A stretch of 64,000 nucleotides of DNA from Actinomycetota bacterium (GTDB lineage: Bacteria; Actinomycetota; Acidimicrobiia; Acidimicrobiales; CAIXPF01): positions 2,393 through 66,392 of the forward strand of contig JAXHUH010000240.1 of assembly GCA_034211175.1 (NCBI GenBank), in the 5' to 3' direction. Positions 13,951 through 63,776 of this stretch are shown one piece after another. Under the pieces are notes generated by a model that was given only the letters and a program-made list of their open reading frames with translations, was not told the origin of the DNA and did not search any database. Each line of letters opens with the position of its first letter. Position 1 is the first letter of the stretch. A program made the position numbers and the translations under genes.

Positions 13951-13974
13951 GAGACATGAAGCATTTTGTGTCTT
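13951..13974. promoter_or_regulatory. Operator-like palindrome GAGACA-N12-TGTCTT (site 1 of 9)
   Basis: AT-rich patch 75 nt upstream of the yrbEA start. Flanked by CTTGAGA direct repeats (13948-13954, 13972-13978). Confidence 0.5.
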
Positions 13975-13988
13975 GAGAAGGAAACCGC

Positions 13989-14014
13989 CTGGGGGGTGAC
14001 GAACAACCCCCCAG
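13989..14014 (+). other. Perfect hairpin CTGGGGGG-N10-CCCCCCAG in the mce leader
   Basis: 8-bp stem and 10-nt loop, read directly. Lies 35 nt upstream of the yrbEA ATG. No U-tract. Confidence 0.4.
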
Positions 14015-14048
14015 CTGCGAACGGAGCTCGTCACCGATACGGGGGAAC

Positions 14049-14842
14049 ATGACGGCAGTGACCCAAGCAATCCGAGGACGTGCCGGCGCCGCCGTGGACG
14101 ACGTCGGCCGCGTCTTCGGGCTGATGTTCGCCATCCTGGTGCGCATCCCTCGGCGTCCGTGGCGCCCACGGGCTGTCGCCGAGCAGGTGTGGTTCGTCGC
14201 GTCGGTCACACTTTTCCGGCGCTGTTGCTGACCCTCAGCTTCGGGCTCGTGATCGGCCTGCAGGTGTACAACATCACCCGGCAGTTCGGCGCCGAATCAG
14301 CGCAGGGCGCGGCCATGGTCCTCGCCATCGTCCGAGAGGCCGGACCGCTGGGCACCACGTTCATGCTCGCCGCTGCGGCAGGCACCGCCATCACGGCCGA
14401 CATCGGCAGCCGGACGGTGCGCGACGAGATCGCTGCCATGCAGGTCATGTCGGTCGACCCGATCCACCGGGTGGTCGTGCCTCGCGTGCTGGGCGCCTCC
14501 ATCGCCGCCGGCATCCTCACCGGCATCGTGATCATGGGCGGGCTGGCCGGCGGCTTCCTGTACTCGGTGGTGCTCAAGGGATCGAACGCCGGCGCCTACC
14601 TCGACGGCTTCTCGACCCTGGCCCAGATGCCCGACCTGTACCTGGCCCTGGCCAAGGGCATGGTGTTCGGGGTCGTGGCCGCGGTCATCGCCGCGTGGCG
14701 AGGCCTGTACGCCAAGGGCGGCGCCGGCGGGGTCGGCTACGCCGTCAACACCGGGGTCGTCATCACCATCCTCGCCCTGGTCGTCGTGAACCTGATCATG
14801 ACCTTCGGCTACCTCGCCATCGTCCCGGACGCCATCCAATGA
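14049..14842 (+). pseudogene. yrbEA: YrbEA/MlaE-family Mce permease; frame break at the TTTT/CC run 14212-14217
   Basis: Frame 0 gives MTAV...VGRVFGLMFAILVRIPRRPWRPRAVAEQVWFVASVTLF. Frame 2 continues PALLLTLSFGLVIGLQVYNITRQFGAE... to 14842. Joined, this gives a normal-length YrbE protein. Confidence 0.75.
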
Positions 14843-15705
14843 CCGCCACCACTCCCGCTCCCACCACTTCGGCGCGCCTGTGGAGCGCGACCAAGCAAGC
14901 CCTCGACCCGCTCGCCCAACCCTGGCGCGTGTCCCAGGACATCGTCGGAGTCGGCGCCAAGGCCGTGGTCAACGTGCCGGCGGCGCTGACCCACCGGGCC
15001 TACATCGTCAAGCTCATCTCCGACGTCGCCGTGGGCTCGGGCGCCTTCATCGTCGGCGCCGGTGCGGTGATCGTGGTGATCTTCATGACCGGTGTCATCG
15101 GCATCCAGGTCGGCCTCGAGGGCTACGAGGGTCTCGAGCTCATCGGTGCCGAGGACCTCATCGGCTTCCTCTCCGCGTTCGCCAACGTCCGCGAGATCAC
15201 CCCGCTGGCCGCGGCCATCATCTTCGCCGCCCAGATCGGCGCCAACTACACCGCCGAGCTGGGGGCCATGCGCATCTCCGAGGAGGTGGACGCGATCGAG
15301 TCGATGGGCATCAAGTCCCTCCGCTACCTGGTCTCGACCCGGCTGGTCGCGTCGTTCATCACCGTCATGCCGCTGTATGTCATCGGCCTGTACGTGCAGC
15401 TGCTGACCACCAAGCTGACCTCGACGGTGTTCTTCGGCATCGCCCCCGGCGTCTACGACCAGTACTTCGAGCTGTACCTGCCCCGCATCGACATCGTCTA
15501 CAGCGTCATCAAGATCCTGGTCTTCATCTCGATCATCACCTTCGTGCACTGCGCCTACGGGTTCCGGGTCTCGGGTGGGCCCGAGGACGTCGGCTACGCG
15601 GTGGGTCGGGCCGTGCGCCTGTCGATCACACTCGTGTTCCTCACCAACTTCTTGCTGACCCTCATCTTCTGGGGTTCGGGCGACACCGTGAGGTTCTCCG
15701 GATGA
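14839..15705 (+). CDS. yrbEB: YrbEB/MlaE-family Mce permease
   Basis: ATGA overlap. 288 aa polytopic with the YrbE pattern (...REITPLAAAIIFAAQIGANYTAELGAMRISEEVDAIESMG...). Confidence 0.9.
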   Translation: MTATTPAPTTSARLWSATKQALDPLAQPWRVSQDIVGVGAKAVVNVPAALTHRAYIVKLISDVAVGSGAFIVGAGAVIVVIFMTGVIGIQVGLEGYEGLELIGAEDLIGFLSAFANVREITPLAAAIIFAAQIGANYTAELGAMRISEEVDAIESMGIKSLRYLVSTRLVASFITVMPLYVIGLYVQLLTTKLTSTVFFGIAPGVYDQYFELYLPRIDIVYSVIKILVFISIITFVHCAYGFRVSGGPEDVGYAVGRAVRLSITLVFLTNFLLTLIFWGSGDTVRFSG

Positions 15706-16838
15706 GCATCCCCATCGCCCTCGTCCGACGCCTGGTCGTCTCCGTGCTGCTCGTCGGTCTGCTCGCCGCGTGGCTCGCCCAGCCCGGGCCCGACCGCAAC
15801 GAGATCACCGTGGAGTTCGCCCGGGCTGGGCTCAACGTGCGCCCTGGCGACGAGGTGCGGGTGCGCGGCGTGCCGGTCGGCACGATCTCGTCGATCGATG
15901 TCGACCGTGACACCTACACGGCGCGCTACACGCTCTCCGTCGACCGCGACGCCCCCATCGCGCCGCTCACGACTGCAGCCCTGGTCCCCAAGACGCTCTT
16001 CGGCGACAAGTACGTGGAGCTGGAGGGCGCCCCGCCCGACGCCGACCACCTGGGCGACGGCGCCCACATCCCGCTCGAGCGAACGTCGGCACCCAGCGAG
16101 GTGCAGGAGGTCCTCGACCAGCTCGAACCGGTCCTGGCCGAGGTCGACCCGGTGGCGTTCGCCAACGTGGTGGCCTCCACCGCGGAGGGCCTCGACGGCG
16201 CCGGCGCCGACATCGCCCGCCTGGTCGACGCCGTGCCCGGGGCGCTCGCCACCATCACCGCCAACCAGCAGGACCTGGGCCGCATCTTCCGCTCCGTTCC
16301 CGGCATCGCCGGCACCCTCGAGGAGCGGGCCGACCAGCTCGTGCAGGTTGCCGACTCCTTCGGCACGCTGGCCACGACCATCGACGACAACGAAGACGAG
16401 CTGGTCCGGTTCGTGACCGACACGGCGGACCTGTCCGCCCGGGCCGCCGAGCTGCTCACCACCGAGGAGGAGCGCCTCACCCGCATCCTCGACGACGGCT
16501 TCGCGGTGATCGACCTGGTGGCCGAGCAGCCCGAGGCGCTACCCAAGCTGCTCGACGGGTTACCGCGGTTCGTGAACGGCCTGGCCGCGGCCACGTCATC
16601 GGGCTACTTCAAGGCGCCGATCGCCAGCTTCGGCGTGTTGATCCCCACCGTCGACTCCAAGGGCGCCCTCGGGGAGGCCGGGGGCGGCGCCGGCTTCGGC
16701 CCTGACATCGTCGTCGAGGGCTTCCCCCTCAGCGACGGCATCACCATCGGCCCCGAGGACAGCACCGGCGGGCTGACCGGTGCGGTCAACGGCGTGGTCG
16801 GTCTGCTGGGGAACCTGCTCGGAGGTGGGCAGCGATGA
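15702..16838 (+). CDS. mceA: MCE-family substrate-binding protein MceA
   Basis: ATGA overlap. N-terminal TM followed by an MCE/MlaD domain (VEFARAGLNVRPGDEVRVRGVPVGTISSIDVD). Confidence 0.88.
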   Translation: MSIPIALVRRLVVSVLLVGLLAAWLAQPGPDRNEITVEFARAGLNVRPGDEVRVRGVPVGTISSIDVDRDTYTARYTLSVDRDAPIAPLTTAALVPKTLFGDKYVELEGAPPDADHLGDGAHIPLERTSAPSEVQEVLDQLEPVLAEVDPVAFANVVASTAEGLDGAGADIARLVDAVPGALATITANQQDLGRIFRSVPGIAGTLEERADQLVQVADSFGTLATTIDDNEDELVRFVTDTADLSARAAELLTTEEERLTRILDDGFAVIDLVAEQPEALPKLLDGLPRFVNGLAAATSSGYFKAPIASFGVLIPTVDSKGALGEAGGGAGFGPDIVVEGFPLSDGITIGPEDSTGGLTGAVNGVVGLLGNLLGGGQR

Positions 16839-18052
16839 GCCTGTGGATCAAGCTCGGCGTCCTCACCGCCGCCGGCATGGCCTGCCTCGCCGTCCTCGCC
16901 GTGCAGATCGGCCAGCTCGGCGGCGCGGCCGGCGCCCTCGCCGACACCTACCCGGTGGTCGCCCACTTCGATGACGCCACCGGCGTCACCGACGGCAACG
17001 AGATCCGCCTCGCCGGCGTGCGCGTCGGCAAGGTCGGTTCCGTCGCCGTGGAGCGGGGCGAAGCGGTGGTCACCATGAACATCGACGAGCGGTACCGGGT
17101 CCCCCAGGACAGCCGGTTCGAGCTCCGGTGGAAGAATCTGCTCGGGCAGCGCTTCATCCAGGTGGTCCCGCCGCCGGAGGCCACACCGGGCGGACCGGCC
17201 GTCGAGGAGGGCGCAGAGCTGACCACGGCCCGGACCCGCTCCGCCGCCGACCTGTCGATGCTGCTCAACAACACCGAGCCGCTCGTGGCTCAGCTCGATG
17301 TGCCCCGCCTGAACCAGGTGACCGCGACGCTCGCCGCCTCGTTCGCCGGACGGGAAGCCGCCCTCGGCGCCGGCATCGACGACGCCAGGACCCTGCTCAC
17401 CGAGCTGAACACTCGCCGCGACGCCATCGACCGCAGCCTCGCCAACCTCGACACCCTGATCGGCGGCATCGCCGAGCGCGACGCCGAGATCGAGCGGTTC
17501 CTGACCTCCTTCGCCACCACGGCGGAGACCTTGGCCGCCAATGCCGGCCAGCTGGGCCTCACCGTCGCCCAGCTCGACGTGCTCGTCGACGTGACCGAGC
17601 AGGTGCTCTCGGCGAGCAGCGAGGATCTCGACGCGGTGATCGACCAGTCGGTCCAGGTCCTCGACGCCGTGGCCGCCAACGCCGACTCCCTCGAGGAAGG
17701 CGTGCGGACGCTGCCCTGGGCGGTGGCCGCCATCACCCGGGCGACCGGGAAGGGCAACTGGTGGCAGGTCTACGCCCGGGGTCTCGGCGGGGTCACGGCG
17801 TTCGTCAACGAGCCGGTGATCGGACCCGACCACAACGACGTCGGCGTCGACGACCAGACCGCCCCCGACGCCCTGCTCGGCGAACCACGCGTCCCACTCC
17901 CCCCGATCCCCGAGACCCAGCTCGGGCCGGTCACCTTGAACCCGTCGCCACAGACCCGCGCCGAGCGCTACGAGCAGAACCGCCAACCCGAGGAGCCGCT
18001 GCTCGGCGGCCTCGGCACCCTCCTCAACAACCTGCTGGGGGGTGGATCGTGA
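16835..18052 (+). CDS. mceB: MCE-family protein MceB
   Basis: ATGA overlap. TM plus MCE domain (VVAHFDDATGVTDGNEIRLAGVRVGKVGSVAVE). Confidence 0.88.
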   Translation: MSLWIKLGVLTAAGMACLAVLAVQIGQLGGAAGALADTYPVVAHFDDATGVTDGNEIRLAGVRVGKVGSVAVERGEAVVTMNIDERYRVPQDSRFELRWKNLLGQRFIQVVPPPEATPGGPAVEEGAELTTARTRSAADLSMLLNNTEPLVAQLDVPRLNQVTATLAASFAGREAALGAGIDDARTLLTELNTRRDAIDRSLANLDTLIGGIAERDAEIERFLTSFATTAETLAANAGQLGLTVAQLDVLVDVTEQVLSASSEDLDAVIDQSVQVLDAVAANADSLEEGVRTLPWAVAAITRATGKGNWWQVYARGLGGVTAFVNEPVIGPDHNDVGVDDQTAPDALLGEPRVPLPPIPETQLGPVTLNPSPQTRAERYEQNRQPEEPLLGGLGTLLNNLLGGGS

Positions 18053-19194
18053 TCGACTCCCGCCTGCGCCTCAAGGCTGCGATCGGCATGGGCATCGTCG
18101 TGGTCCTCGGCCTTGTCGCCTTCGCCATCGGCGGCATGCGGATCTTCGAGCGCACCTACCCGCTGTCGGTGGTCGTCGAGGATGCCGCCGGGCTCGAGAC
18201 CGGAGATCCGGTCCGGGTGGCCGGTGTCCCGGTCGGCTCGGTGAACTCGATCGAGCGGATTCCCGAGGACGGCACGCTGCGGGTCGGCTTCCAGGTCGAT
18301 TCGGGCACCGAGATCTCCGAGTCGAGCACCGCATCGGTCCGGCTCCGCACCCTGCTGGGCAAGAAGTACCTCGACATCGCCGACCCCGGCACCGGCCAGC
18401 CGTTGGCCGAGGGCGGCGTGGTCCCCGTCTCCCAGACCAGCGCGTCCACCGACGTCGACACCCTGCTCAACGCGGCGGAGCCCACGTTCGAGCGCACGGA
18501 CGTGGACAGCATGAACAGCTTGCTCGCCGGTGTCGACCGCACCCTCGCCGGGCGGGGCGACGAGCTGCGGGACGTGTTCACCGAGCTCGGTGACCTGGCT
18601 TCCACGTTCGCCGACCGTGAGGCCGAGCTGACCCGGCTCATCGAATCCACCAACCAGCTCGCCGGCGTGGTCGGCGCCCGTGACGCCGAGCTGCGCACCG
18701 TGCTCGACGGCATGGACCTGGTGCTGGCCACGCTGTCCGAGCGGGGCGGCAACCTCACCGCCCTGGTCGACCAGGTGCGCACCCTGTCCGACACCCTGTC
18801 CCCGCTGCTCGCCACCAACCGGGACGACTTCACCTCCCTCTTGGCCGACGTGAACCAGGTCAGCGAGGTGCTCGTCCGCCAGAAGGACCGCCTCGACGTC
18901 GCACTCACCCAGGCCCCCAGCCTGGCCGAGCGCTTCCACGCCACCACCGCTGAGGGCTCGTGGGTGAACGTGTACATCGTCGGCGTGGTCGCCACGCCGT
19001 TCCTGGCCGATCCGGTCGACCTGGGCTCGTCGAACACGTCCGAGCCCGGCGTCAGCGGCGGGGTGCCCCGGGTGTGGCTCGACCCGCCCCAGCTCCTTCC
19101 GGACACCGACATCGCCGGCATCGACCTGCTCTTCGAGGACAACCGGGTCATCCAGGCGCCGGAGGGCTACATCGAGGGAGCGCCGAGCCGATGA
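18049..19194 (+). CDS. mceC: MCE-family protein MceC
   Basis: GTGA overlap. TM plus MCE domain (LSVVVEDAAGLETGDPVRVAGVPVGSVNSIERI). Confidence 0.88.
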   Translation: MIDSRLRLKAAIGMGIVVVLGLVAFAIGGMRIFERTYPLSVVVEDAAGLETGDPVRVAGVPVGSVNSIERIPEDGTLRVGFQVDSGTEISESSTASVRLRTLLGKKYLDIADPGTGQPLAEGGVVPVSQTSASTDVDTLLNAAEPTFERTDVDSMNSLLAGVDRTLAGRGDELRDVFTELGDLASTFADREAELTRLIESTNQLAGVVGARDAELRTVLDGMDLVLATLSERGGNLTALVDQVRTLSDTLSPLLATNRDDFTSLLADVNQVSEVLVRQKDRLDVALTQAPSLAERFHATTAEGSWVNVYIVGVVATPFLADPVDLGSSNTSEPGVSGGVPRVWLDPPQLLPDTDIAGIDLLFEDNRVIQAPEGYIEGAPSR

Positions 19195-20381
19195 CCACCT
19201 CGCTGGCCCGGCGCGCCATCACCGCCGTCGTCGTCTTCGCGTTCTCGCTGTCCACCGCCGGGCTCGCCGGTGTCGCCCTCGGCGTCGAGCTCGACAACCC
19301 CTTCGAGCCCGAGCGCACGGTCGTGCACGCCGACTTCGAGCGAGCCGTGGGCCTCTACGACCAATCCCGCGTGTTCGCCGACGGCGTGGAGGTCGGCGAG
19401 GTCACCGACATCGAGGTGCTCCCCGACACCGTCCGGGTGGAGCTGACCCTCGACGACATCGCCATCCAGGACGACACCAAGGCCATCCTCCGGCTCCGGT
19501 CCCTCATCGGTGAGCGGTACGTGGAGCTCACGGACGTGTGGACCGGGGACGGGAGCCGCCTCGAGTCCGGTGACGTCATCCCGTTGGAGCGCACCGTGGT
19601 GCCGGCCGAGATCACCGAGGTGCTCGACGAGGCGGCCCGGGTGTCCGAGGAGCTGGACGGCGCCACCCTCAACCGCGTCATCGAGGAGCTGGCCGTGGTC
19701 GTCGCCGACGACGGTGTCGCCGTGGAGGCGCTGCTCGAGGACCTGGCCGACGCCGGCGACGTGGTCGCGGCCCGGGCCGACGACCTCGACGAGCTCATCA
19801 GCTCCCTCGACACGGCCGTGGCCACCCTCGCCGAGAAGGATCAGACGGTCGTGTCGGTTCTGCGCAACGGCACGACGGTGTCCCAGGCCCTGCTCGCCCA
19901 GGAAGGGGCGCTCGACGCAGCCGTGCGCAGCATCGACACCATCGTCGGTGACCTGGCCACCTTCGCCGGCGACCAGCGCCAGGGCCTCACCGACCTGGCC
20001 GGTGACCTGTCCGAGATCGGCGCGCTGCTGGCCTCCCACCGGGCCGACTTCGAACAGACCGTGGACTACCTGCCGTGGGCGTCGTACGGGTTCGCCCGGG
20101 CCATCGCCCACGACGGCGACCGCTGGTACCTGCAACCCCAGGTCACCGGCACCCTCGTCGCGCCCTTCATCCCCAACGTCAACTCCCGCGGCGGGATCGG
20201 CTCCGAGGAGGAGGACAACCGCCTCGTTCCCGGCGTCGACTACGGCGACTCGGTCTTGCGCGACGTGGTGCCATGGCAGATCGACACCACGCCGCTGCTC
20301 GGCAACGGCCCGCTCCTGCCCTCGACGTCGCTGGGACCGGTCACCATCGACGCCGACGGCTCCGGGAGCGCGACGCCGTGA
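19191..20381 (+). CDS. mceD: MCE-family protein MceD
   Basis: ATGA overlap. TM plus MCE domain (VHADFERAVGLYDQSRVFADGVEVGEVTDIEV). Confidence 0.88.
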   Translation: MTTSLARRAITAVVVFAFSLSTAGLAGVALGVELDNPFEPERTVVHADFERAVGLYDQSRVFADGVEVGEVTDIEVLPDTVRVELTLDDIAIQDDTKAILRLRSLIGERYVELTDVWTGDGSRLESGDVIPLERTVVPAEITEVLDEAARVSEELDGATLNRVIEELAVVVADDGVAVEALLEDLADAGDVVAARADDLDELISSLDTAVATLAEKDQTVVSVLRNGTTVSQALLAQEGALDAAVRSIDTIVGDLATFAGDQRQGLTDLAGDLSEIGALLASHRADFEQTVDYLPWASYGFARAIAHDGDRWYLQPQVTGTLVAPFIPNVNSRGGIGSEEEDNRLVPGVDYGDSVLRDVVPWQIDTTPLLGNGPLLPSTSLGPVTIDADGSGSATP

Positions 20382-20412
20382 CCGACCACCGAACCACCAA
20401 GGAGGCCGGACC

Positions 20413-21540
20413 GTGCTCCGCCTGACCCTCGTCCAGCGGATCCGCCTCGGGATCCTCGTGGCCGTGCTCGCCGCCGCCGGCGTGTTCGTCATCCGGGCGT
20501 GGCCCGAAGCCGGCACCGCCTACGCAGCGATCGCCGAGGACGCCTCCGGGCTGGTGCCCCGCAACGACGTACGCCTGAACGACATCGTCGTCGGCCAGGT
20601 GACCGGCATCGACCTCGAGGGGCTCGACGCCCGCATCGGCTTCACCATCGACGACGACGTGGAGCTGCCGTCGGCGACCAAGGTGGAGATCCGCCAGACG
20701 TCGCTGCTGGGGGAGTACTTCCTCGCCCTCGTCCCCGAGGGCGAGGGCCGGCTGGAGCCGGGCACCACCATCCCGCTGGAGCGGACCCGCCGGGCCGCCG
20801 AGCTGGAGACCATCGTGTCCCGGGCCGGTGCGCTCACCGCCCAGGTCAACATCGACAACATCAACCGCATCCTCACCTCACTGGACACCGGCTTCGCTGC
20901 CGGGCCCGATGCGGTCGGCGACATGTTCGAGTCCATCGCCGGCACGGCGACCACGATGTCGACGCTGCGCGCCGACCTCAACGCCACCATCGACTCCGTC
21001 GATGCCCTGTCGGCCCGGCTGGCGCCGGAGACCGGCCGGTTCAGCGACGCCGTCAGCCGGTTCGCCGACGGCGCCGAGGCGCTCGCCAGCTCCAACGAGG
21101 GCATCGACGTGCTCGTCGAGCAGCTCGGCTCGGCCACCGGGTCGCTGTCCGAGCTCCTCGAGCGCAACCGGGAACGGCTCCAGCGCAGCACACCGGTGCT
21201 GCGCCGGACGCTGGCCGACGTGGTCGCCAACCTCGACGACGTGATCTCGTCGGTCCAGGGCCTGCCCGCCTTCAACCGGGGCTGGGCCTGCGCCGCCGAC
21301 GGCCACTACCTCAACTTCATGTTCCCCCTCGCTCCCGAGGCGGCGAACCTTGATCTGAACCCGGGCCGGTGCGACAACGTCGAGGAAGGCCCACGCGGTC
21401 GTGCGCGGCCCACCGAGGTGCAGCTGCTGCCCGGCTTGGACAGCTTGCAGGTGGATGACCCGGTCGGCACCGGCGACGTCGACCTCGGCGCCGGCACCGC
21501 CAACGAGGGCCGGTCGGCCCTGGAGGGCGACCGGCCATGA
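20413..21540 (+). CDS. mceE: MCE-family protein MceE
   Basis: GTG with AAGGAGG 7 nt upstream. TM plus MCE domain (AIAEDASGLVPRNDVRLNDIVVGQVTGIDLE). Confidence 0.85.
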   Translation: MLRLTLVQRIRLGILVAVLAAAGVFVIRAWPEAGTAYAAIAEDASGLVPRNDVRLNDIVVGQVTGIDLEGLDARIGFTIDDDVELPSATKVEIRQTSLLGEYFLALVPEGEGRLEPGTTIPLERTRRAAELETIVSRAGALTAQVNIDNINRILTSLDTGFAAGPDAVGDMFESIAGTATTMSTLRADLNATIDSVDALSARLAPETGRFSDAVSRFADGAEALASSNEGIDVLVEQLGSATGSLSELLERNRERLQRSTPVLRRTLADVVANLDDVISSVQGLPAFNRGWACAADGHYLNFMFPLAPEAANLDLNPGRCDNVEEGPRGRARPTEVQLLPGLDSLQVDDPVGTGDVDLGAGTANEGRSALEGDRP

Positions 21541-26096: not shown

Positions 26097-26120
26097 GTGA
26101 CAGAGGCGATCATATGTCCT
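26097..26120. promoter_or_regulatory. Operator-like palindrome GTGACA-N12-TGTCCT (site 2 of 9)
   Basis: In the divergent SDR/ACAD intergenic region. Overlaps the local palindrome CACATGTG (26092-26099). Confidence 0.45.
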
Positions 26121-46584: not shown

Positions 46585-46638
46585 CGAAGGCCTCCATCGG
46601 GGCAAGATGTGCGAACAGGGCAAAACCCTACCCAAACA

Positions 46639-50749: not shown

Positions 50750-50773
50750 GCGACAGAGGGTCAGCGGTGTCGC
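50750..50773. promoter_or_regulatory. Operator-like palindrome GCGACA-N12-TGTCGC, perfect half-sites (site 6 of 9)
   Basis: 55 nt upstream of the enoyl-CoA hydratase start. Confidence 0.5.
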
Positions 50774-52323: not shown

Positions 52324-52351
52324 TCGGCATCGGAGGGTGCAGGAGCTGACC

Positions 52352-53277: not shown

Positions 53278-53370
53278 GGCGTCTCCCACCGGTTGGCGGT
53301 GGGTGCACCCCGGCTCGGTAGGTTCGCCGCTCGTGACCTCGGCTGGCGACTGCGAACGGGTGTGCGAGCC

Positions 53371-55336: not shown

Positions 55337-56511
55337 GCGTCCTCCTGTCCGAGGATGAGAGTTGCGCTGCCCATGCGGTTCGCCAGTGAGCCGCCGGTGC
55401 CATGCGCCAGCGCGAGCTGGCAGTCCGGCACCTGGACCTCGCCGTGGGCCTCGCCGCGCAGCTGGCGGACGGCCTCGATGATCTTGGTCATGCCGCCCCG
55501 GTTGGCGGGGTGGTTGTTGCACAGGCCGCCGCCGTCGGTGTTGAACGGCAGCCGACCGTCCGGTGCGCGCAGGCCCTGGTCGGCCACGAACGTGCCGCCC
55601 TTGCCCTTCTCGCAGAACCCGAGGTCCTCGATGGTCTCCAACACGGTGATGGTGAAGGAGTCGTAGATCGATGCGTAGTCGATGTCGGCCGGGGTCACTT
55701 CCGCTTCCTCGAAGGCCCGGGGCCCCGACCACACCGCGCCGGTGTGGGTGAGGTCGATGCGGCCGTTGTCGGTGTGCTTGGGCGACTCACCGTGGCCGAG
55801 CACCTTGACGCAGCGGCGCTCGAGGTCCCGGGCGATCTCGGGGCTGACCACGACCAGGGCACCCCCGCCGTCGGTGATCACGCAGCAGTCGAGGCGGTGC
55901 AGCGGGTCACTGACGATGGGGGACTCGACCACCTGCTCGATCGTGACCGGGTCGGGCAGGAACGCGTTCGGGTTGAACTGGGCGTGGTGCGATGCCGCGA
56001 CCTTGATCTCGGCCAACTGCTCGCTGGTGGTGCCGAACTCGTACATGTGCCGACGGGCGGCCAGCGCGTAGCCGCCGTGGATGGCCATGCCGTAGGTCAT
56101 CTCGAAGCCGGCCTCGGGGGCGCTGGCGAACATCGCTCGGGCGCCGCCCATCATCGACGCCGGATCTGATCGGGGCAGGCCGCCCAACGTCACCAGCGCG
56201 ACCGAGCACTTGCCCGTCGCGATGGCGGCGGCCGCGTGGCCGACGTGGCACAGGTACGACGACCCGCCGGTCTCGGTGGTGTCGATGTGGCGCAGCTTCA
56301 GCCCCAGGTACTCGGCCATGGAGAAGCCACCGAAACCGGGGGCGTCACCGGCGCAGAAGTAGCCGTCGACGTCGTCCATGGACAAGCCGGCGTCGGCGAG
56401 GGCGCCGACGGCGACGTCAGCGTGCACCTGGGCGACGGTGCGGTCGGGGATGACGCGCAGTGGATGTTCGTAGGCGCCCGCGATGAACGCCTTGCCGCGG
56501 ATGGTGGTCAA
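55333..56511 (-). CDS. SCP-x/Ltp-type thiolase-like protein
   Basis: 392 aa. KAFIAGAYEHP...TGGSSYLCHVGHAAAAIATGKCSVALV... Confidence 0.88.
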   Translation of the reverse strand: MTTIRGKAFIAGAYEHPLRVIPDRTVAQVHADVAVGALADAGLSMDDVDGYFCAGDAPGFGGFSMAEYLGLKLRHIDTTETGGSSYLCHVGHAAAAIATGKCSVALVTLGGLPRSDPASMMGGARAMFASAPEAGFEMTYGMAIHGGYALAARRHMYEFGTTSEQLAEIKVAASHHAQFNPNAFLPDPVTIEQVVESPIVSDPLHRLDCCVITDGGGALVVVSPEIARDLERRCVKVLGHGESPKHTDNGRIDLTHTGAVWSGPRAFEEAEVTPADIDYASIYDSFTITVLETIEDLGFCEKGKGGTFVADQGLRAPDGRLPFNTDGGGLCNNHPANRGGMTKIIEAVRQLRGEAHGEVQVPDCQLALAHGTGGSLANRMGSATLILGQEDA

Positions 56512-56568
56512 GGACTCCTCGAATCTGTCGGGGGTGATGGTGTTCGCGTCCGGGGGCCGGGTCCGGCC

Positions 56569-57978
56569 TCAGCCCTTCGAGCGGTGGACGACCTGGGGCT
56601 CGCAGAAGCCGAGCAGCCCCCACGTGCCGTTCTCGACGCCGATGCCGCTCCACTTGGCCCCGCCGAAGGGCTGGTGGGGTGCCAGCGCCAGGTGGGTGTT
56701 GACCCACGCGGTGCCGCACTCGAGCTCTTCGGCGATCTCCGCCGCTCGCTCGACGTCGGTGCCCCACACCGAGCCGGACAGGCCGTAGTGGGTGGCGTTG
56801 GCCCGGTCGATGACCTCGTCGACGTCGCGGTAGGCGATGACGGGCAGCGCCGGGCCGAACTGCTCCTCGTCGACGATGCGGGTGCCGTCGGAGAGGCCGG
56901 TGAGGATGGTGGGCTCGAAGAAGTAGCCGTCGCCCTCGATCGGCTTGCCGCCGGCCGCAGCCACCGCGCCGGAGGACAGGGCGTCGGCGACCAGCTCGCT
57001 GACCCGTTCGAACTGGGGGCGGTTGTTGATCGGGCCCAGCTGCACGTCGGGCTCGGTGCCCGCGCCGACCTTGACGGAACGAGCCCGGTCACCGAGGCCC
57101 TCCACGATCTGGTCGTGCAACGACTCGGGCACGTACACCCGCTTGATCGCCGAGCACACCTGGCCGTTGTTCTGGAACGCACCCCAGAACAGCTTCTCGA
57201 CCACGGCGTCGACGTCGACGTCCTCGAGGACGATGGCCGGGTCGTTGCCGCCCAGCTCCAGGGTGGTGCGCTTGAGGTCGGGGGCGGCGGCGGCCGCGAC
57301 CTTCTTGCCGGTGGCCACCGACCCGGTGAAGCTGATCTTGCGGGGGACAGGGTGCGATGTCATCGATGCCCCGAGGGGGTCCTTGCCACTGACCACGTTC
57401 AGCACGCCGGGCGGCAGGACATCGCGCAGGACTTCGCCCACGGCCAGCGTGGCCCGCGGGGTGAACGGCGACGGCTTGAGCACCATCGTGTTCCCGGCAA
57501 GCAGGGCAGGGGCGATCTTCCAGGAGGCGAGCACGAGCGGGAAGTTCCACGGGGTGATGCCGGCGACGACGCCGAGGGGTCGCTGGATGACCTCGACGAA
57601 CGCGGCGTCGTCGTCTTGGATCACCTGCCGGGGGATCTCCAGGTCGGCGTAGTACTGGAACCACATGGCGGCGCCGTACACCTCGAAGGTGGCCTCGCCG
57701 AGCGGCTTGCCCTGCTCGAGTGTGAGGATGGGCGCGATGTCGTTGGCGGCCGCCATCAGTGCATCGGCGGACTGGCGGAGGAGGTCGCGCCGCCGGCCCT
57801 CGTCCTGGCGCCAGTCGCGGTAGGCCTTGGCCGCCGAGGCCATGGCTGCGTCGAGCTGCTGCGGCGTGCAGTCCGGCGCCGTCGCCTCCGGAGCGCCGGT
57901 CGCCGGGTTGACGACGTCGAACGTCGCCTCGGTGCTCGCTGCGACGCCGTCGATGGTCATCGTGACTTCTTCGCTCAC
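56569..57978 (-). CDS. NAD(P)-dependent aldehyde dehydrogenase
   Basis: 469 aa. GITPWNFPL, LKPSPFTP, ELGGNDP. The catalytic Cys region is GQVCSAIKRVYV. Confidence 0.93.
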   Translation of the reverse strand: MSEEVTMTIDGVAASTEATFDVVNPATGAPEATAPDCTPQQLDAAMASAAKAYRDWRQDEGRRRDLLRQSADALMAAANDIAPILTLEQGKPLGEATFEVYGAAMWFQYYADLEIPRQVIQDDDAAFVEVIQRPLGVVAGITPWNFPLVLASWKIAPALLAGNTMVLKPSPFTPRATLAVGEVLRDVLPPGVLNVVSGKDPLGASMTSHPVPRKISFTGSVATGKKVAAAAAPDLKRTTLELGGNDPAIVLEDVDVDAVVEKLFWGAFQNNGQVCSAIKRVYVPESLHDQIVEGLGDRARSVKVGAGTEPDVQLGPINNRPQFERVSELVADALSSGAVAAAGGKPIEGDGYFFEPTILTGLSDGTRIVDEEQFGPALPVIAYRDVDEVIDRANATHYGLSGSVWGTDVERAAEIAEELECGTAWVNTHLALAPHQPFGGAKWSGIGVENGTWGLLGFCEPQVVHRSKG

Positions 57979-58014: not shown

Positions 58015-58038
58015 GAGACATGTGGCTCAGAGTGTCGC
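58015..58038. promoter_or_regulatory. Operator-like palindrome GAGACA-N12-TGTCGC (site 7 of 9)
   Basis: 37 nt upstream of the ALDH start, in the divergent ALDH/esterase region. Confidence 0.5.
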
Positions 58039-58159
58039 ACGCGACGGTCGGGTCGCGCCAGGTCGACCGACGGGCCGACGAAGAAGGTGAGCGTCGGGCA
58101 CACTGGCCCCGGCTGCGCCGCCTGCTCTGGGCGGCCCGACGAAGGGGAGCGTGGAGACC

Positions 58160-59086
58160 ATGCCGATCGATCCGCAGATCCAGACCGTCCTCGACCAGAT
58201 GGAGGAGATCGGGTTCCCCGGGCTCTCGTCCCTCCCCGTCGAGCAGGCCCGTGCGGCCCTGGCCATGATGGGGGCCGCCGAGGCCGACGCCGTGGAGGAG
58301 GTGGCCCGGGTCGAGGATCTGGAGATCCCCGGGCCGGGCGGGGCCATCCCGGCTCGGGCCTACGTGCCGGCCACCGACGGCACGCCCCCGGTCGTCGTCT
58401 ACTACCACGGCGGCGGTTTGGTTCTCGGCGGCCTCGACAGCCACGACGGCACGTGCCGCGCCCTGGCCAACGCATCCGGGGCCCTGGTGCTGAGCATCGA
58501 CTACCGCCTCGCCCCGGAGCACCCGTTCCCCGCTGCGGTCGAGGACGCCGGGGCGGCGCTGGACTGGGTGGCCGCGAACGTCGCCGAGCTCGGGGGCGAC
58601 CCCGCGAGGTTGGCCGTGGCCGGGGACTCGGCCGGCGGCAACCTCGCCGCGGTCGTCGCCCTCCAGGCCCGGGACGCCGGCGCACCGCAGCTGCGGGGGC
58701 AGCTGTTGGTGTACCCGGTCACCGACTCGACGATGAGCCACCCCTCGATCGAGGAGAACGCCTCCGGCTACTTCCTCACCAAGGCCGACATGGAGTGGTT
58801 CTTCGACCACTACGCTCCCGAGCGGCCCGACGACTGGCGTCTGTCACCGCTGGCCGCGCCCGACCTCGCCGGGCTGCCACCCGCCCTCGTGCTCACCGCC
58901 GAGTTCGACCCGCTGCGCGACGAAGGCGAGGCCTACGCCCGCCGGCTCGCGGATGCCGGGGTGCCGGTGGAGCTGGTGCGCAAGGACGGGTTGATCCACG
59001 GGTTCTTCGGCATGGTCGCCGACGTGGACGAGGCCCGGGACGCCATGGACCGGGCCGGGGCCGCCCTTCGGGCCTGGCTGGCCTGA
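58160..59086 (+). CDS. Alpha/beta hydrolase fold-3 (HSL-type) esterase, paralogue of 44774..45667
   Basis: HGGGL and GDSAGG motifs. ATG 58160 has AAGGGGAG 10 nt upstream. The ORF is open from GTG 58151. Confidence 0.88.
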   Translation: MPIDPQIQTVLDQMEEIGFPGLSSLPVEQARAALAMMGAAEADAVEEVARVEDLEIPGPGGAIPARAYVPATDGTPPVVVYYHGGGLVLGGLDSHDGTCRALANASGALVLSIDYRLAPEHPFPAAVEDAGAALDWVAANVAELGGDPARLAVAGDSAGGNLAAVVALQARDAGAPQLRGQLLVYPVTDSTMSHPSIEENASGYFLTKADMEWFFDHYAPERPDDWRLSPLAAPDLAGLPPALVLTAEFDPLRDEGEAYARRLADAGVPVELVRKDGLIHGFFGMVADVDEARDAMDRAGAALRAWLA

Positions 59087-59093: not shown

Positions 59094-60587
59094 TCAGCCC
59101 AGCTCGAAGCCGGCCGGCCCCTCGCCGCCGGGCACGACGGTGACCGTCTGGCCCACGAGCTGGCCGCCCGAGAGCTCGGCGGCCAGCGACGGATCGTCCC
59201 GGCGAACGACGACCCGCCGACGGTCGGCGGTGGTGGCGTAGGCCACGACGGACGCCGGGCCGGCGTCCCGGTCGTGGATGACCGTGCCGCCGTCGACGGT
59301 CGCCGGGCCGGTGGCGCCGGGGCCGGCCTGGGCCAGCGCCGTCGCATCGATGGCAGCCTGGGCGCCGGCCAGGTCGGGCTTGGCGAACCCTCGCTCGGGC
59401 GGCGTGGTGCTCCACAGGCCGATCGAGTGCTTGGTGACGTACCAGCCCAGCCCGGTGGTGAGCCCGATGGCGCCGGGGTCGTCCCGCAGCTGCTGGGCCA
59501 TGGTCGCGATGCTGTGGGACGTGTAGTTGTTGCCGGGTCCGCCGAAGTAGGCGTGGCCGCCGGTGACCGTGAACGGGCGGGGGTCGTCCAGGCTCAAGCC
59601 GAGGGCGGTGGCGGAGATCTCCACGGCCACCGGGAAGCAGGAGTAGAAGTCGAAGCGGGAGATGTCGTCGAGGTCGCAGCCGACCGCCTCGAACAGCGCC
59701 CGTCCAGCCGTCTCGATCGCGGGGGAGCGGTGCAGCTCCGGCCGCTCCAGCGGATAGAAGACGTCGTTGAGATCGGCGACGCCGAGGGGGAACACCCACC
59801 GGTCACGGGGGATGCCGGCGGACTCGGCCGCCTCGGCCGAGCACAGCAGGAACGCCGCCGCCTGGTCGACCTCGATGATGGCGTTCATCCGCTTGGTGTA
59901 GGGCTCGGCGATCATCCGGTTGCCGGGCGTCGGCTCGGACAGCTCCTCGGCGGTGGCCGGCTCCGGGAACCAGGCCAGGTCCGGGTGGGTCGCGGCCACC
60001 TCGGTGGCCGGCGCCATGAACTGGCCGAGGAAGCGGCGCTGCTCGTCGAGGCTGCGCCCGGCGTGGTGGGCCACGGCCGATTCCAGGATCGGGTACAGGA
60101 ACGGCGGCGGCGCCAGGCCGGCGTGCACCTCGGCGGGCGACGCGCCCATGCGCGTGTCGCCGATCTCGGTGTCCTCGCCGGTGGCCTCCCGGGCGGTCCG
60201 GGGGGCGACCCCCTGCTTGCGGGCACGGCGTACCGATGCCCCGGCCTCGGCGCCAGCGACGAGGGCCACGTCGCAGCGGCCCTCGACGATGTCGGTGCCG
60301 AGCGTGCCCACCAGCCACTGGGGGGTGTTGCCCCCGATGGTGGACGACAGCAGGCGGCGCGGGGCCAGCCCGAGCGCAGCGGCGAGGCGGTGCGCGGCGT
60401 GCTCGGTGTGGGGGGCGAGGACGCCGGGCATGGCGATCGTGTCCACGCCCAGATCGGCGCCGCAGTCGGCGAGGGCCCGGCGGGTGGCCTCGGCGGCGAG
60501 CGTGATCGGGTCGACCAGCTCGTCGCCGCGGTTCGTGACCTGCCCGACCCCGACGAGGACCGGGGTCCTGGGGTCGAGCGCGCTCAC
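59094..60587 (-). CDS. Thiolase-like protein, about 497 aa (acetyl-CoA acetyltransferase-like)
   Basis: GTGA overlap with the MaoC stop. PVLVGVGQVTNR...VALVAGAEAG...GGPGNNYTSHSIA pattern. Confidence 0.78.
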   Translation of the reverse strand: MSALDPRTPVLVGVGQVTNRGDELVDPITLAAEATRRALADCGADLGVDTIAMPGVLAPHTEHAAHRLAAALGLAPRRLLSSTIGGNTPQWLVGTLGTDIVEGRCDVALVAGAEAGASVRRARKQGVAPRTAREATGEDTEIGDTRMGASPAEVHAGLAPPPFLYPILESAVAHHAGRSLDEQRRFLGQFMAPATEVAATHPDLAWFPEPATAEELSEPTPGNRMIAEPYTKRMNAIIEVDQAAAFLLCSAEAAESAGIPRDRWVFPLGVADLNDVFYPLERPELHRSPAIETAGRALFEAVGCDLDDISRFDFYSCFPVAVEISATALGLSLDDPRPFTVTGGHAYFGGPGNNYTSHSIATMAQQLRDDPGAIGLTTGLGWYVTKHSIGLWSTTPPERGFAKPDLAGAQAAIDATALAQAGPGATGPATVDGGTVIHDRDAGPASVVAYATTADRRRVVVRRDDPSLAAELSGGQLVGQTVTVVPGGEGPAGFELG

Positions 60588-61423
60588 CGGGCGATCGCCC
60601 GGGCCTGGCTGAGCACGACGTTGCCCTTCTGGGTCGACGCCTCGACGACGGCGCCGTCGCCGTCGCGCCACATCTTGGTGACGATCGTGTCCTCGGGCCA
60701 CACCTGGTCGGCGAAGCGGCCCTCGAGCGTGCCGAAGGCGTCCACGTCGCCGCCGAACACCCCGGCCAGCACCGCCCGACCGACGAAGCCGAAGGTGCAC
60801 AGGCCGTGGTTGAACGGCGCGTCGAAGCCAGCCATCTGCGCGAACTCCGGATCGATGTGCAGCGGGTTCCGGTCACCGGAGAGGCGGTAGATCGCTGCCT
60901 GCTCCTTGCGGGTCTCGTACTCGACCACCACGTCGGGGTCCCGGTCGGGTGGCTGGTTCTTGCCGCTGGTCGACGGGCCCCGTTCGCCGCCGAACCCGCC
61001 GGCACCACGGACGAACAAGGTGGCGGCGGCGGTGAACATCTCGCCGTCATCGTCGCTGGCCGTGCCCTCGAAGCCGAGGACCGCGGCCTTGCCCTTGTCC
61101 CACACCTCGGTGATCCGCCCATGGATCTGCACCTCGGCCCTGGGCGGCAGGGTCCGGTGGCACGTGATCGACTGCTCGCCGTGCAGGATCATGGCCGGGT
61201 TCACCTCGACCTCGCCGAACACACTGCCCATGGCCGTCAGCCCCGGGATCACGCCGTAGGTGGGCAGGACCACTGGGCCGCGACCCTCATAGACGAAATC
61301 GAGGTCCTCCGGCGGGCGGGCACCGACGCCCAGCGCGTAGAGCATGACGTCCTTGTCGTTCCAAGACGCCTTGACCGGCGGGAGTTCGAGGCCGGCGAGA
61401 TCAGTGGAGATCGGTTGAGGCAT
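60584..61423 (-). CDS. MaoC-like double-hotdog (R)-specific enoyl-CoA hydratase (MFE-2 hydratase-2 / Hsd4B-like)
   Basis: ATG at 61423. ...YALGVGA...ILHGEQSI... and YRLSGDRNPLHIDPEFA...GFDAPFNHGLCTFG. Confidence 0.87.
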   Translation of the reverse strand: MPQPISTDLAGLELPPVKASWNDKDVMLYALGVGARPPEDLDFVYEGRGPVVLPTYGVIPGLTAMGSVFGEVEVNPAMILHGEQSITCHRTLPPRAEVQIHGRITEVWDKGKAAVLGFEGTASDDDGEMFTAAATLFVRGAGGFGGERGPSTSGKNQPPDRDPDVVVEYETRKEQAAIYRLSGDRNPLHIDPEFAQMAGFDAPFNHGLCTFGFVGRAVLAGVFGGDVDAFGTLEGRFADQVWPEDTIVTKMWRDGDGAVVEASTQKGNVVLSQARAIAR

Positions 61424-61457: not shown

Positions 61458-61481
61458 AAGACAGAAGGCCGTTGCTGTTTC
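61458..61481. promoter_or_regulatory. Operator-like site AAGACA-N12-TGTTTC (site 8 of 9)
   Basis: 35 nt upstream of the MaoC start. Confidence 0.4.
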
Positions 61482-61529
61482 ACGGAGCCGACGCAACCAC
61501 GGGCCCCCGGGGTCAGCGGTCGTATCGGT

Positions 61530-62729
61530 CTACGAGCCCGAGCCGGTCGCGGCGACCGCGTCGGAGAAGCCGTGGGGGATGACGATGTCGGCCGGGCTGA
61601 GCTCGGCGAGCGAGCCCTTGCCGAGTCCGAGCATGGCGGAGTCGATGCCGCCGCGGAGGACGTCGAGCACGTTCTCGACGCCGGGCTGGCCGCCGACGGC
61701 CAGGGCCCACAGCGAGGCGCGGCCGATCATGACCGCCTTCGCGCCGAGGGCGACGGCCTTGACGACGTCGCTGCCGCGGCGGATGCCGCCGTCCATGACG
61801 ACCTCGATGCGATCGCCCACGGCGTCGGCGATGAGGGGCAGGGCACGGATGGAGGCGGGGGTGGTGTCGAGGTTGTTGCCGCCGTGGTTGGAGACGCTGA
61901 TGGCGCTGTAGCCGGCGTCGGCCGCCCGTCTGGCGTCGTCGACGCGCATGATGCCCTTGAGCATGAACGGGCCGTCCCACTGCTCGCGCAGCCAGCGCAG
62001 GTCGTCCCAGCTGGGTGGCGGGGTGCCCATCCACTGGCCGTAGGCCTCGAAGAAGCCCGGGGGCTGCTCGCCCTCGGGGACCATGTTGGGCACGTGGAGG
62101 TCGGGCAGGGATCGGTGCTCGATGGTGTAGCGGCCGTAGCGCCAGGCGTAGCGAGGGCTGGTGAGCAGCTCGGGGGAGTGCTTGATGGAGGTCTTGAGGT
62201 CGAGGGCTTCGGGGATGTCGGGGCTGCCCCAGTCGCGGCCGTGGGAGAACGACCAGTCGAGGGTGACGATGAGGCCGGGGATGCCGGCGCGCTTGGCTCG
62301 GTCGAGTCGGGCGGTCATCTGCTCGCGGGTGCCGCACCAGTAGATCTGGAACAAGGTCTGGGGGTTCTCGGCCATGACCTGCTCCATGGGGGTGGAGCCG
62401 AAGTTGGACAGGCCGAGGGCCGTGCCCCGGGCCGCGGAGGCCCGCGCGATGCCCATCTCGGCCTCCGGGTGCACCATCTGCACGCCGGTGGGGGAGATGA
62501 ACACCGGCATCGAGATGGGTTGGCCCATGACCTCGACCGATTGGTCCCGCTCGGCGGGCTTGTCGGCGACGGTGGGCACGAAGCCCAGCTCCCGGAAGGC
62601 GCGGACGTTGTCGTCGAGGGTCTCACCGGCCTCTGCGCCGGCTTTGAGGGCCCCGAACACCGAGCGGGGCAGGATCTTGGCGGCCCGCTGGCGGGCGACC
62701 TCCACGGTCTCGAACCACTTGTGTGCCAT
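61530..62729 (-). CDS. FMN-dependent alpha-hydroxy-acid dehydrogenase family, MftD/LldD(Rv0694)-like long form
   Basis: 399 aa. WFETV..ARQRA.K.LP.SV..., ISPTG, the insert TLDWSFSHGRDWGSPDIPE, SVSNHGGNNLD, DGGIRRGSDVVKAVALGA. Confidence 0.88.
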   Translation of the reverse strand: MAHKWFETVEVARQRAAKILPRSVFGALKAGAEAGETLDDNVRAFRELGFVPTVADKPAERDQSVEVMGQPISMPVFISPTGVQMVHPEAEMGIARASAARGTALGLSNFGSTPMEQVMAENPQTLFQIYWCGTREQMTARLDRAKRAGIPGLIVTLDWSFSHGRDWGSPDIPEALDLKTSIKHSPELLTSPRYAWRYGRYTIEHRSLPDLHVPNMVPEGEQPPGFFEAYGQWMGTPPPSWDDLRWLREQWDGPFMLKGIMRVDDARRAADAGYSAISVSNHGGNNLDTTPASIRALPLIADAVGDRIEVVMDGGIRRGSDVVKAVALGAKAVMIGRASLWALAVGGQPGVENVLDVLRGGIDSAMLGLGKGSLAELSPADIVIPHGFSDAVAATGSGS

Positions 62730-62788
62730 CGCTTCGGGTCCTCCGCCCTTCGATGTCGTCGGCTTTCTGTTGAACCCGGGAGGGCGGC

Positions 62789-63652
62789 TCAGACGGTGAG
62801 CAGCGCGTAGTCGTCGACCTCTCGGCCGTCGGCTTCGAGCCGGCGGCGCTCCCGGTCCATGAGGTCCTTCTCGATCTCGGTGCGCTCGGTGGCCAGCTCG
62901 TCCATGCCGATGGGGCCCATGGCCCGGCCGGCGAGGAACTGGCGGATGAGCGGGTTGTCGGTGGTCCGCATCTCCTCCTTGGCCGCGAACTTGACCAGGT
63001 TGGCCTGGTACAGCACGGCGATGTAGTCCGAGGTGCGCATCACCGAGGCGATGTTGTGAGTGATGATCAGGAAGGTGGCGTGGGTCTCCTCCTGGATCTT
63101 CTTGATCAGCTCGTCGAGATAGGAGACCCGGACGGGGTCGAGGCCGGAGTCGGGCTCGTCGAACAGGATGATCTCGGGGTCCATCGACAGCGCCCGGGCG
63201 AGGCCGGCCCGCTTCTTCATGCCGCCGGAGACCTCGCCGGGGAACTTCTTCATGTGGTCGAGCAGGCCGACGAGGCTGGCCTTCTCGAGCACGATCTCGC
63301 GGATCTCCTTCTCGGGCTTGGTGGTGTGCTCGCGCAACGGGAAGGCGATGTTGTCGAAGATGTTCATCGACCCGAACAGGGCGCCGTCCTGGAACAGCAC
63401 GCCGAACTTGCGCCGGACCCGGTACAGGTCCTTCTCCCCCATCGAGACGGTCTCCTCACCGTCGACCCAGATCTCACCGTTGTCGGGCCGCAGCAGGCCG
63501 ATGACGTTCTTGAGCAGCACCGACTTGCTGGTTCCGGACGGACCCATCACGGCACTCACCTTGCCCCGGGGGATGTCGAAGGAGATGTCCTCGAGGACCG
63601 TGTGTGATCCGAAGCTCTTCGTCACGTTGCGCAGCGAGATCGCAGCATCCAC
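62789..63652 (-). CDS. mkl: Mkl/MceG (MlaF-type) ABC ATPase for Mce transporters
   Basis: GTG at 63652 with GGGGAGG RBS. ISLRNVTKSFGSHTVLEDISF, Walker A GPSGTSKS, VSGGMKKRAGLARAL, ILFDEPDSGLDP, plus a C-terminal extension. Confidence 0.87.
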   Translation of the reverse strand: MDAAISLRNVTKSFGSHTVLEDISFDIPRGKVSAVMGPSGTSKSVLLKNVIGLLRPDNGEIWVDGEETVSMGEKDLYRVRRKFGVLFQDGALFGSMNIFDNIAFPLREHTTKPEKEIREIVLEKASLVGLLDHMKKFPGEVSGGMKKRAGLARALSMDPEIILFDEPDSGLDPVRVSYLDELIKKIQEETHATFLIITHNIASVMRTSDYIAVLYQANLVKFAAKEEMRTTDNPLIRQFLAGRAMGPIGMDELATERTEIEKDLMDRERRRLEADGREVDDYALLTV

Positions 63653-63752
63653 GGGTCTACCTCCCCAACGGGGGGGGACGAGGCGGGCTGCAGGTTGTTC
63701 TCGGTCATCTCGGTCCCCCAGCTCTGGTCGCCGCACGAACGCGGCGCTACAT

Positions 63753-63776
63753 TGGACACGATACTGGCTATGTCTC
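63753..63776. promoter_or_regulatory. Operator-like palindrome TGGACA-N12-TGTCTC (site 9 of 9)
   Basis: In the divergent mkl/TetR intergenic region. 72 nt upstream of the TetR GTG and 101 nt upstream of the mkl GTG. Confidence 0.5.

Follow-up and report, generated by a model that had tools for sequence, protein, structure and literature searches.

Most of what is known about Mce transporters comes from mycobacteria, in which four regulators have been described, KstR, Mce3R, Mce1R and Mce2R (PMC13492129). The present study deals with a stretch of 64,000 nucleotides from an Actinomycetota bacterium of the order Acidimicrobiales (contig JAXHUH010000240.1 of assembly GCA_034211175.1; this whole stretch is called the window) and with a palindrome that recurs in it. 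It is a real repeated palindrome which stands before Mce/Mkl lipid-uptake genes and before genes of lipid breakdown. In its full form, CATGnGACA-N12-TGTCnCATG, it is probably the operator of a single TetR-family factor encoded at positions 34410-35029, most likely a repressor. The mce operon, the ATPase gene mkl and the catabolic genes are joined by the motif in one candidate regulon, as had been proposed in the first-pass annotation of this DNA.

A number of described systems can be set beside this locus. KstR (Rv3574) of mycobacteria and Rhodococcus is alike in that one TetR-type repressor, which is autoregulated, acts on many palindromic operators, often in divergent intergenic regions, of a lipid-catabolic supercluster with mce genes (PMC1995591, PMC13492129). 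However, the TetR protein at 34410 is not an orthologue of KstR; KstR chains are absent among its 36 sequence matches in the PDB at E <= 1e-3, the host belongs to the Acidimicrobiales, and BVMO, esterases, TLP1 and 4HBT are present here instead of steroid ring-opening enzymes. KstR2 (4w97) appeared as the rank-45 fold match, with a TM score of 0.50 and 16% identity. The KstR operator TnnAACnnGTTnnA (14 bp) and the KstR2 operator AnCAAGnnCTTGnT each had 0 matches in the 64-kb window, which agrees with the earlier statement that the motif is neither a KstR nor a KstR2 box. Mce3R (Rv1963c) also is a TetR-type repressor of an mce operon and of the adjoining lipid-metabolic genes, but it is a double-TetR protein with two 25-bp non-palindromic sites (PMC11667970), whereas the protein at 34410 has a single domain and its predicted operator is a strict palindrome.

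The acyl-CoA-responsive TetR proteins (FadR of Bacillus, Thermus and Sulfolobus, and KstR2) repress beta-oxidation and lipase clusters through a small number of palindromic sites, from which acyl-CoA releases them; in Sulfolobus a lipid cluster of 30 kb is under such control by the TetR-type FadR, which acts at four sites (PMC6449355). Such proteins were among the nearest structural matches of the 34410 model (TM about 0.6-0.69) at a sequence identity of 15-20%, and in the FadR equivalog test NF053878 the protein scored 38.4 bits against a cut-off of 200. With the QacR/SmeT/TtgR class, in which two dimers bind a 28-bp palindrome, the locus has in common an operator of 24-30 bp, and SmeT is the best PDB match by sequence and by fold. 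SmeT binds a 28-bp pseudopalindrome, from which it represses two divergent genes (PMC3128119). That class controls efflux pumps from one operator, whereas here there are several predicted operators with catabolic targets, and the central 12 bp are not conserved. By its predicted parts, the system is functionally of the same kind as the KstR regulon, but it is not a member of the KstR, KstR2 or Mce3R type.

The palindrome and its occurrence

The first-pass annotation had listed nine 24-mers of the form GnGACA-N12-TGTCnC, and all nine were verified in position and sequence (Table 1). The motif is longer than was described there. Its conserved block reads C-A/G-T/C-G-n-G-A-C-A and is followed by 12 unconserved bases and by the mirror image, so that two 9-bp arms lie with their centres about 21 bp, or two helical turns, apart. 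The conserved span is 30 bp (positions -2 to 27), within the 24-30 bp of the palindromes in QacR-like operators. The consensus of 32 non-redundant sites from all lineages is CATGAGACA-N12-TGTCTCATG; ACA and TGT are invariant across these sites, partly through the selection rule used, and the spacer has just a weak preference for A beside the arms.

In the whole window, the G+C content of which is 70%, the strict core GACA-N12-TGTC was seen seven times against 1.19 expected, and none of 100 shuffles reached this number. Six of the listed sites carry it (13951, 26097, 43442, 50750, 58015 and 63753) and not five, as had been counted; the seventh match, at 2558, is within an HSP20 gene, has flanks that do not match and looks like a chance occurrence. 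In intergenic DNA six were seen against 0.068 expected (Poisson p 1.3e-10). As a guard against choosing a pattern by eye, all 4-mer palindromic dyads with a spacer of 0-20 were compared in intergenic DNA only (28 regions, 4415 bp), and GACA-N12-TGTC ranked at the top by a wide margin; among 500 random sets no p was lower than 3.8e-6. This test replaced an enumeration over the whole window, which was swamped by codon-periodic GC-rich dyads. The excesses of AGGA-N14-TCCT and CGTT-N4-AACG were almost wholly coding and were therefore rejected as codon artefacts.

The loose pattern GNGACA-N12-TGTCNC with up to two mismatches, a search proposed in the first-pass annotation, was not enriched (32 matches against 49 expected), and by itself it thus lends no support to the three weak sites 34350, 35452 and 61458. 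These are supported instead by an independent half-site matrix, because it recovers them although it was trained solely on 17 sites from distant lineages. In this test, the strongest single one made, the nine sites rank 1-6 and 8-10 in the window; 10 window matches score at least 14 against 0.22 expected and 11 score at least 12 against 0.47 expected, the next match being at 8.6. The spacing is strict: when matches are counted by spacer length, N12 stands out sharply in the window, its clade and distant TetR-bearing loci, and the counts are flat in loci without the TetR gene.

Loci fetched from other genomes are designated here by L and a number. The first-pass annotation had named orthologous promoters as one place where its motif could fail, and it was found that sites are kept there in relatives, with invariant arms. 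In the alignment of MaoC promoters ACA and TGTCTTGC are invariant in seven sequences (TLP1 identity 74-94%) and the flanks diverge; in that of ALDH promoters the arms are invariant in five relatives and the spacer is variable. The mce operon of L003 lies, with yrbEA, directly opposite MaoC, and a single site is common to both, an independent link between mce and the catabolic genes.

Once gene starts are corrected against intact orthologues, all nine sites are intergenic, as had been claimed, and the distances from site to start are 0-112 nt over all sites. The description of the palindrome as genuine, non-random and promoter-proximal is thereby upheld. It should be noted here that the CATG flanks give ATG codons on both strands, and ORF (open reading frame) callers therefore extend the ACAD2 frame (MSH..., 43459) and the mkl frame (MRHSQ..., 63778) into the operator. 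The 43442 site does overlap the first ATG of the ACAD2 frame, as was noted earlier, this ATG being borne by the flank; it does not overlap the true start, since ACAD2 likely starts at GTG 43483, behind the Shine-Dalgarno sequence GGGGGAG. The region of the mkl site is non-coding, because two relatives read the site in different frames. A -10-like hexamer TANNNT lies within five spacers. The arms were also considered as -35 boxes (GnGACA resembling TTGACA); this was rejected as there is no -10 at 16-18 bp downstream, where the flank reads CRYG.

Site 35452, called the weakest in the first-pass annotation, is indeed the least secure one, and the orthologous region of L082 does not have it. In the intergenic region between SCP2 and SDR2 of L082 (11040-11070), three tandem copies of GGTGTAAC lie at the place of this site. 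Two further candidates were found in the window. The tenth, at 46641, aligns with a canonical GCGACA-N12-TGTATC in L082, and a site at L008:2866 lies upstream of a BVMO gene. The same intergenic region has a second block (46681-46704), GACA-N14-TGTC, the arms of which are identical in the window, L082 and L083 and the spacer of which differs at two positions. At the eleventh, a -10-like TAGTGT lies 6 nt before the ATG of the minus-strand Mas-like ORF; a second Mas-like ORF begins near 23351 on the plus strand.

The TetR protein at 34410 and other possible binders

A TetR-family protein remains the most likely binder of the motif, as was first suggested, and it is the order of the candidates that has changed. 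The TetR gene at 34410 had been ranked second; it is now the best candidate, since its family co-occurs with the motif in about eight lineages. Homologues of 36-57% identity were found in Ilumatobacter, Microthrixaceae, UBA2766, L074 (unclassified Actinomycetota) and about 25 mycobacterial loci, and further ones in Iamia, L089 and M. septicum. In each of these homologue-bearing lineages the promoter of the TetR gene, or that of the operon to which it belongs, carries the motif, and the own-promoter arrangement was also seen in L082, L081, L089, L010, L014, L016, L020, L039 and L090. The conserved neighbours are 4HBT, TLP1, MaoC, DUF35-thiolase, ACAD, SDR and BVMO. One or more sites are present in each of the 27 loci with a homologue (53 sites in 466 kb) but in only 3 of the 42 loci that lack it (3 sites in 658 kb).

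The repaired protein has 206 amino acids, the same length as many intact orthologues at 85-97% identity, and the intact 206-residue orthologues carry PF00440 (TetR_N). Its predicted model has a TetR fold of 9-10 helices (pLDDT 83), and all top PDB fold matches are TetR proteins; the fold search against the PDB returned the generic TetR fold alone and no informative close relative. By sequence, SmeT was the best of the PDB matches, at 2.3e-12. Throughout the family the recognition helix reads SRATVYRYF without variation, in agreement with the invariant ACA/TGT arms. No NCBIfam model or source annotation names the family beyond 'TetR/AcrR family', and no description of this TetR/palindrome pair was found in the literature. 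PpsR/CrtJ was considered as a match to the GACA/TGTC palindrome and rejected, as its arms have the opposite orientation.

Several points weigh against this assignment. A G run near 34705 has lost 1 nt (GGG to GG), which breaks the frame of the gene, and if this frameshift is real, the regulon would be derepressed in this organism. Three mycobacterial loci have a site upstream of TLP1 with no TetR homologue within 10 kb. The co-occurrence sample really comes to about eight lineages, because many mycobacterial loci are about 95% identical and not phylogenetically independent. The central 12 bp are not conserved, though the inner subunits of a QacR-like complex should read them; the specificity of the motif was judged within the window and the fetched loci, at about 20 kb per genome; and it is the gene context (4HBT, ACADs, ECH and thiolases) that suggests acyl-CoA as the candidate ligand. 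As for the frameshift, at least four window genes are broken by deletions of 1-2 nt as compared to intact orthologues in L082 and L003, namely yrbEA (14215), TetR (34705), the SCP2-like gene (35060-35411, in three places) and Metal_hydrol (45699-46600). This indel-type pattern suggests assembly errors and not pseudogenes.

It is unlikely, in our judgement, that the motif is bound by a factor encoded elsewhere, maybe of another family, so that the TetR linkage would reflect shared regulon membership. The three mycobacterial loci just mentioned and the coverage of about 20 kb per genome would fit such a factor, and 21 bp between arm centres is wide for one TetR dimer; an operator of 24-30 bp is, however, normal where TetR proteins bind in two dimers (PMC3128119). 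Moreover, all motif-bearing lineages share just one regulator, the 34410-type TetR, with the motif in its own promoter each time, whereas the other local regulators vary by lineage. There is very little probability that the binder is the TetR protein encoded at 63848, which had been named the prime candidate, be it alone or as a lineage-specific paralogue replacing an inactivated 34410. The gene stands opposite mkl with a site 71 nt ahead of its start, the helix-turn-helix of its product ends in ...EAGVSR as in the 34410 family, and the frameshift of 34410 in the window would favour a replacement. But no relative was found in 80 fetched loci or in a search of 5.8 billion proteins, and the best match in a metagenome scan was just 53% over 30 residues. 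The mkl site is kept in the close relatives L005, L044 and L004 with no TetR gene alongside, and the visible 51 residues are without C31, G36, T40-T41 and D44, which are invariant in the 34410 family. The 63848 protein is possibly a target or co-regulator and not the conserved regulator.

It is extremely improbable that the palindromes are not protein sites at all but chance occurrences, a dispersed repeat (REP- or MITE-like) or RNA/DNA hairpins such as terminators and attenuators. Although a hairpin forms more readily at site 13951 than in its own shuffles (z = -3.97), for five of six sites the folding does not surpass that of shuffled sequences, the arms are conserved in sequence and do not co-vary, the spacers are unrelated, the sites lie upstream and not downstream of genes, and there was no Rfam match to them. 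The dyad enrichment, with p 1.3e-10 after all dyads were tested, also speaks against it. The TetR genes at 29912 and 48393 were rejected as sources of the binder, as they are not a common denominator across lineages, and no motif was found in their own divergent intergenic regions. The product of 29912-30544 is MftR-like, yet below the NCBIfam cut-off (152.7 against 224.9).

The loci L034, L035, L036, L038, L039 and L041 are about 95% identical over 21.5 kb across mycobacterial genera (Mycobacteroides and several Mycolicibacterium species). In M. septicum (L090, 1-5700) genes for a TrwC relaxase, an integrase and a transposase adjoin the TetR-4HBT module. Apparently this module is carried by a mobile element, the alternative being contamination between assemblies.

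Proposed regulation and genomic setting

TetR proteins are overwhelmingly ligand-released repressors. For the protein at 34410 we infer binding, repression, stoichiometry and ligand as predictions. It would bind on the promoters, or close beside them, in nine or more transcription units (perhaps 11), and the proposed regulon would consist of the yrbE-mce importer, the ATPase gene mkl, two SDR-ACAD divergons, MaoC-TLP1, ALDH-thiolase-DUF35, ECH-DLH-SDR-MFS, the 4HBT thioesterase and its own gene. As with QacR, one palindrome of 24-30 bp could be occupied by two cooperating dimers, and this mode is the likeliest because the arm centres are about 21 bp, two helical turns, apart. The 4HBT gene looks leaderless, with a -10-like TACCTT 7 nt ahead of its ATG, and the predicted operator would cover this -10. 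Occlusion of promoters is likely, since the operators lie at or just upstream of starts, TANNNT is present in five spacers and the 4HBT operator lies over its -10. Release by a hydrophobic pathway metabolite would switch on uptake and breakdown of one lipid-like substrate class together. This metabolite could most plausibly be an acyl-CoA, which is suggested by the constant pairing of the regulator with a hotdog thioesterase and acyl-CoA enzymes. The combination of BVMO, esterase, SDR, ALDH and beta-oxidation-like enzymes with Mce uptake points to a hydrophobic ketone or an alicyclic or isoprenoid-like lipid as the substrate.

A wider reading is more tentative, and we regard it as rather doubtful in its full extent. 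The TetR subfamily, itself uncharacterised, and its operator would form an ancient, partly mobile module common to Acidimicrobiia and Mycobacteriales. It would control an unrecognised catabolic pathway (TLP1, MaoC, DUF35-thiolase, 4HBT, ACAD and BVMO/esterase) for a lipid-like or alicyclic substrate, to which the Mce importer and its ATPase may have been recruited in this clade. Only the outer 9 bp of each arm, two helical turns apart, would be read, in a geometry of DNA recognition undocumented for TetR proteins.

The earlier gene map was largely borne out by Pfam and NCBIfam scans of the window ORFs. These assign yrbEAB-mceA-F, two SDR-ACAD divergons, alpha/beta hydrolases, two pairs of DUF35 and thiolase-like genes, MMPL, a 4HBT thioesterase facing TetR, BVMO, two esterases, ECH-DLH-SDR-MFS and ALDH, and towards the right end MaoC with the thiolase-like TLP1, an MftD-type FMN dehydrogenase, mkl and the TetR gene truncated by the window end. 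The closest relatives of the window TLP1 are from metagenome-assembled genomes of Acidimicrobiales (83-94% identity), mycobacterial ones being at about 53%. The FMN-dependent dehydrogenase at 61530-62729 (minus strand), between mkl and MaoC, passed the NCBIfam equivalog cut-off for MftD, pre-mycofactocin synthase (628.9 against 470.85 bits); the scans of the window ORFs named no other mycofactocin gene, and no search was aimed at them. Cytochrome P450 genes are present in the neighbourhoods of relatives (L089, 3199-4422 and 14433-15689; L090, 13384-14838), and in L005 a site at 1271-1294 lies 59 nt upstream of one. The P450 neighbours suggest hydroxylation steps within the same pathway.

Between the SCP2-like gene and SDR2 (35559-42381) the window carries an insert of about 6.9 kb that is absent from L082 and L083. 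In it are genes for a Liv-type ABC transporter (a binding protein with fused permeases and fused ATPases) and an Ala/Pro-rich ORF of 602 amino acids that matches no Pfam family. Another Liv-type set, at 8033-13754, is found immediately upstream of the mce site. Outside the regulon, at the left end of the window, there are an IS110-family transposase gene (583-1800), two HSP20 genes and a DnaJ gene (2341-4541). Only distant single-gene matches to the window were found in a plasmid collection.

Table 1. Predicted operator sites and genes of the candidate regulon in the window, with corresponding sites in relatives (locus:position)
Feature	Position	Strand	Setting and remarks	Matrix score	Sites in relatives
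Predicted operator GAGACA-N12-TGTCTT	13951-13974		74 nt upstream of yrbEA (start 14049)	22.1	
Predicted operator GTGACA-N12-TGTCCT	26097-26120		Between SDR1 (start 26061, -; 35 nt) and ACAD1 (26184, +; 63 nt)		L082:825; L089:7063 (upstream of an ACAD)
Predicted operator GGCACA-N12-TGTCTC	34350-34373		Abuts 4HBT ATG (0 nt); TetR start 36 nt away; regulator's own promoter	15.6	L082/L083:9940; L081:9941; L089:9929
Weakest, doubtful site GATACA-N12-TGTAAC	35452-35475		40 nt upstream of SCP2-like gene	16.6	
Predicted operator GTGACA-N12-TGTCTC	43442-43465		Between SDR2 (start 43389, -; 52 nt) and ACAD2 (17 nt)	25.9 (top)	L082/L083:12093
Predicted operator GCGACA-N12-TGTCGC	50750-50773		54 nt upstream of ECH (ECH-DLH-SDR-MFS)		L082:19426; L003:18782 (both with one arm altered to GACG/CGTC)
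Predicted operator GAGACA-N12-TGTCGC	58015-58038		Between ALDH (-; 36 nt) and esterase (+; 112 nt)		L003/L005:11606; L044:8847; L002:2875
Predicted operator AAGACA-N12-TGTTTC	61458-61481		34 nt upstream of MaoC-TLP1		L003/L005:9107; L044:6349; L015:995; L043:9104; L089:6926 (upstream of MaoC)
Predicted operator TGGACA-N12-TGTCTC	63753-63776		Between mkl (start 63652, -; 100 nt) and second TetR (63848, +; 71 nt)		L005:6896; L044:4138; L004:953
Candidate 10th site, degenerate, GCAACG-N12-TGTATC	46641-46664		True intergenic region between Metal_hydrol and BVMO	16.1	L082:15295
Candidate 11th site, near-consensus, GAGACA-N12-CGTCTC	23351-23374		Start of Mas-like (Mce-associated) ORF 22811-23350 (-), downstream of mceF	12.8	
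TetR-family regulator, best candidate binder	34410-35029	+	Frame broken by 1-nt deletion; repaired protein 206 aa		
yrbEAB-mceABCDEF transporter operon	14049-22790	+	Predicted target; Pfam MlaE; yrbEA frameshift near 14215; corrected yrbEA start 14049		
SDR1	25165-26061	-	Predicted target		
ACAD1 / alpha-beta hydrolase / DUF35 OB-fold / thiolase-like operon	26184-29888	+	Predicted target		
4HBT (hotdog) thioesterase	33906-34349	-	Predicted target; adjoins TetR in every lineage		
SDR2	42481-43389	-	Predicted target		
ACAD2-esterase operon	43483-45667	+	Predicted target		
ECH-DLH-SDR-MFS operon	50828-54915	+	Predicted target		
ALDH / thiolase-like / DUF35 operon	54929-57978	-	Predicted target		
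Abhydrolase_3 esterase	58151-59086	+	Possible target; 112 nt from site		
MaoC hydratase / TLP1 thiolase-like operon	59094-61423	-	Predicted target; conserved regulon core		
mkl (MceG-type ATPase), then MftD-like FMN dehydrogenase	61530-63652	-	Predicted target		
Second TetR gene	63848-64000	+	Truncated by window end, 51 residues visible; site 71 nt upstream		

The candidate TetR-operator pair is conserved from Acidimicrobiia to mycobacteria, and the motif is very probably the binding site of this uncharacterised TetR protein. The operator could also serve as an aid to annotation, by delimiting the regulon in metagenome-assembled genomes and by drawing attention to the false ATG starts that its CATG flanks yield. 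Since environmental mycobacteria have this pair too, culturable hosts are available for experimental work. For the Acidimicrobiia, which are uncultured and environmentally abundant, it provides a candidate regulator-operator pair for an Mce system outside mycobacteria, and since the importer and its ATPase are tied by it to a defined set of enzymes, this set is the best available clue to the substrate that is imported.

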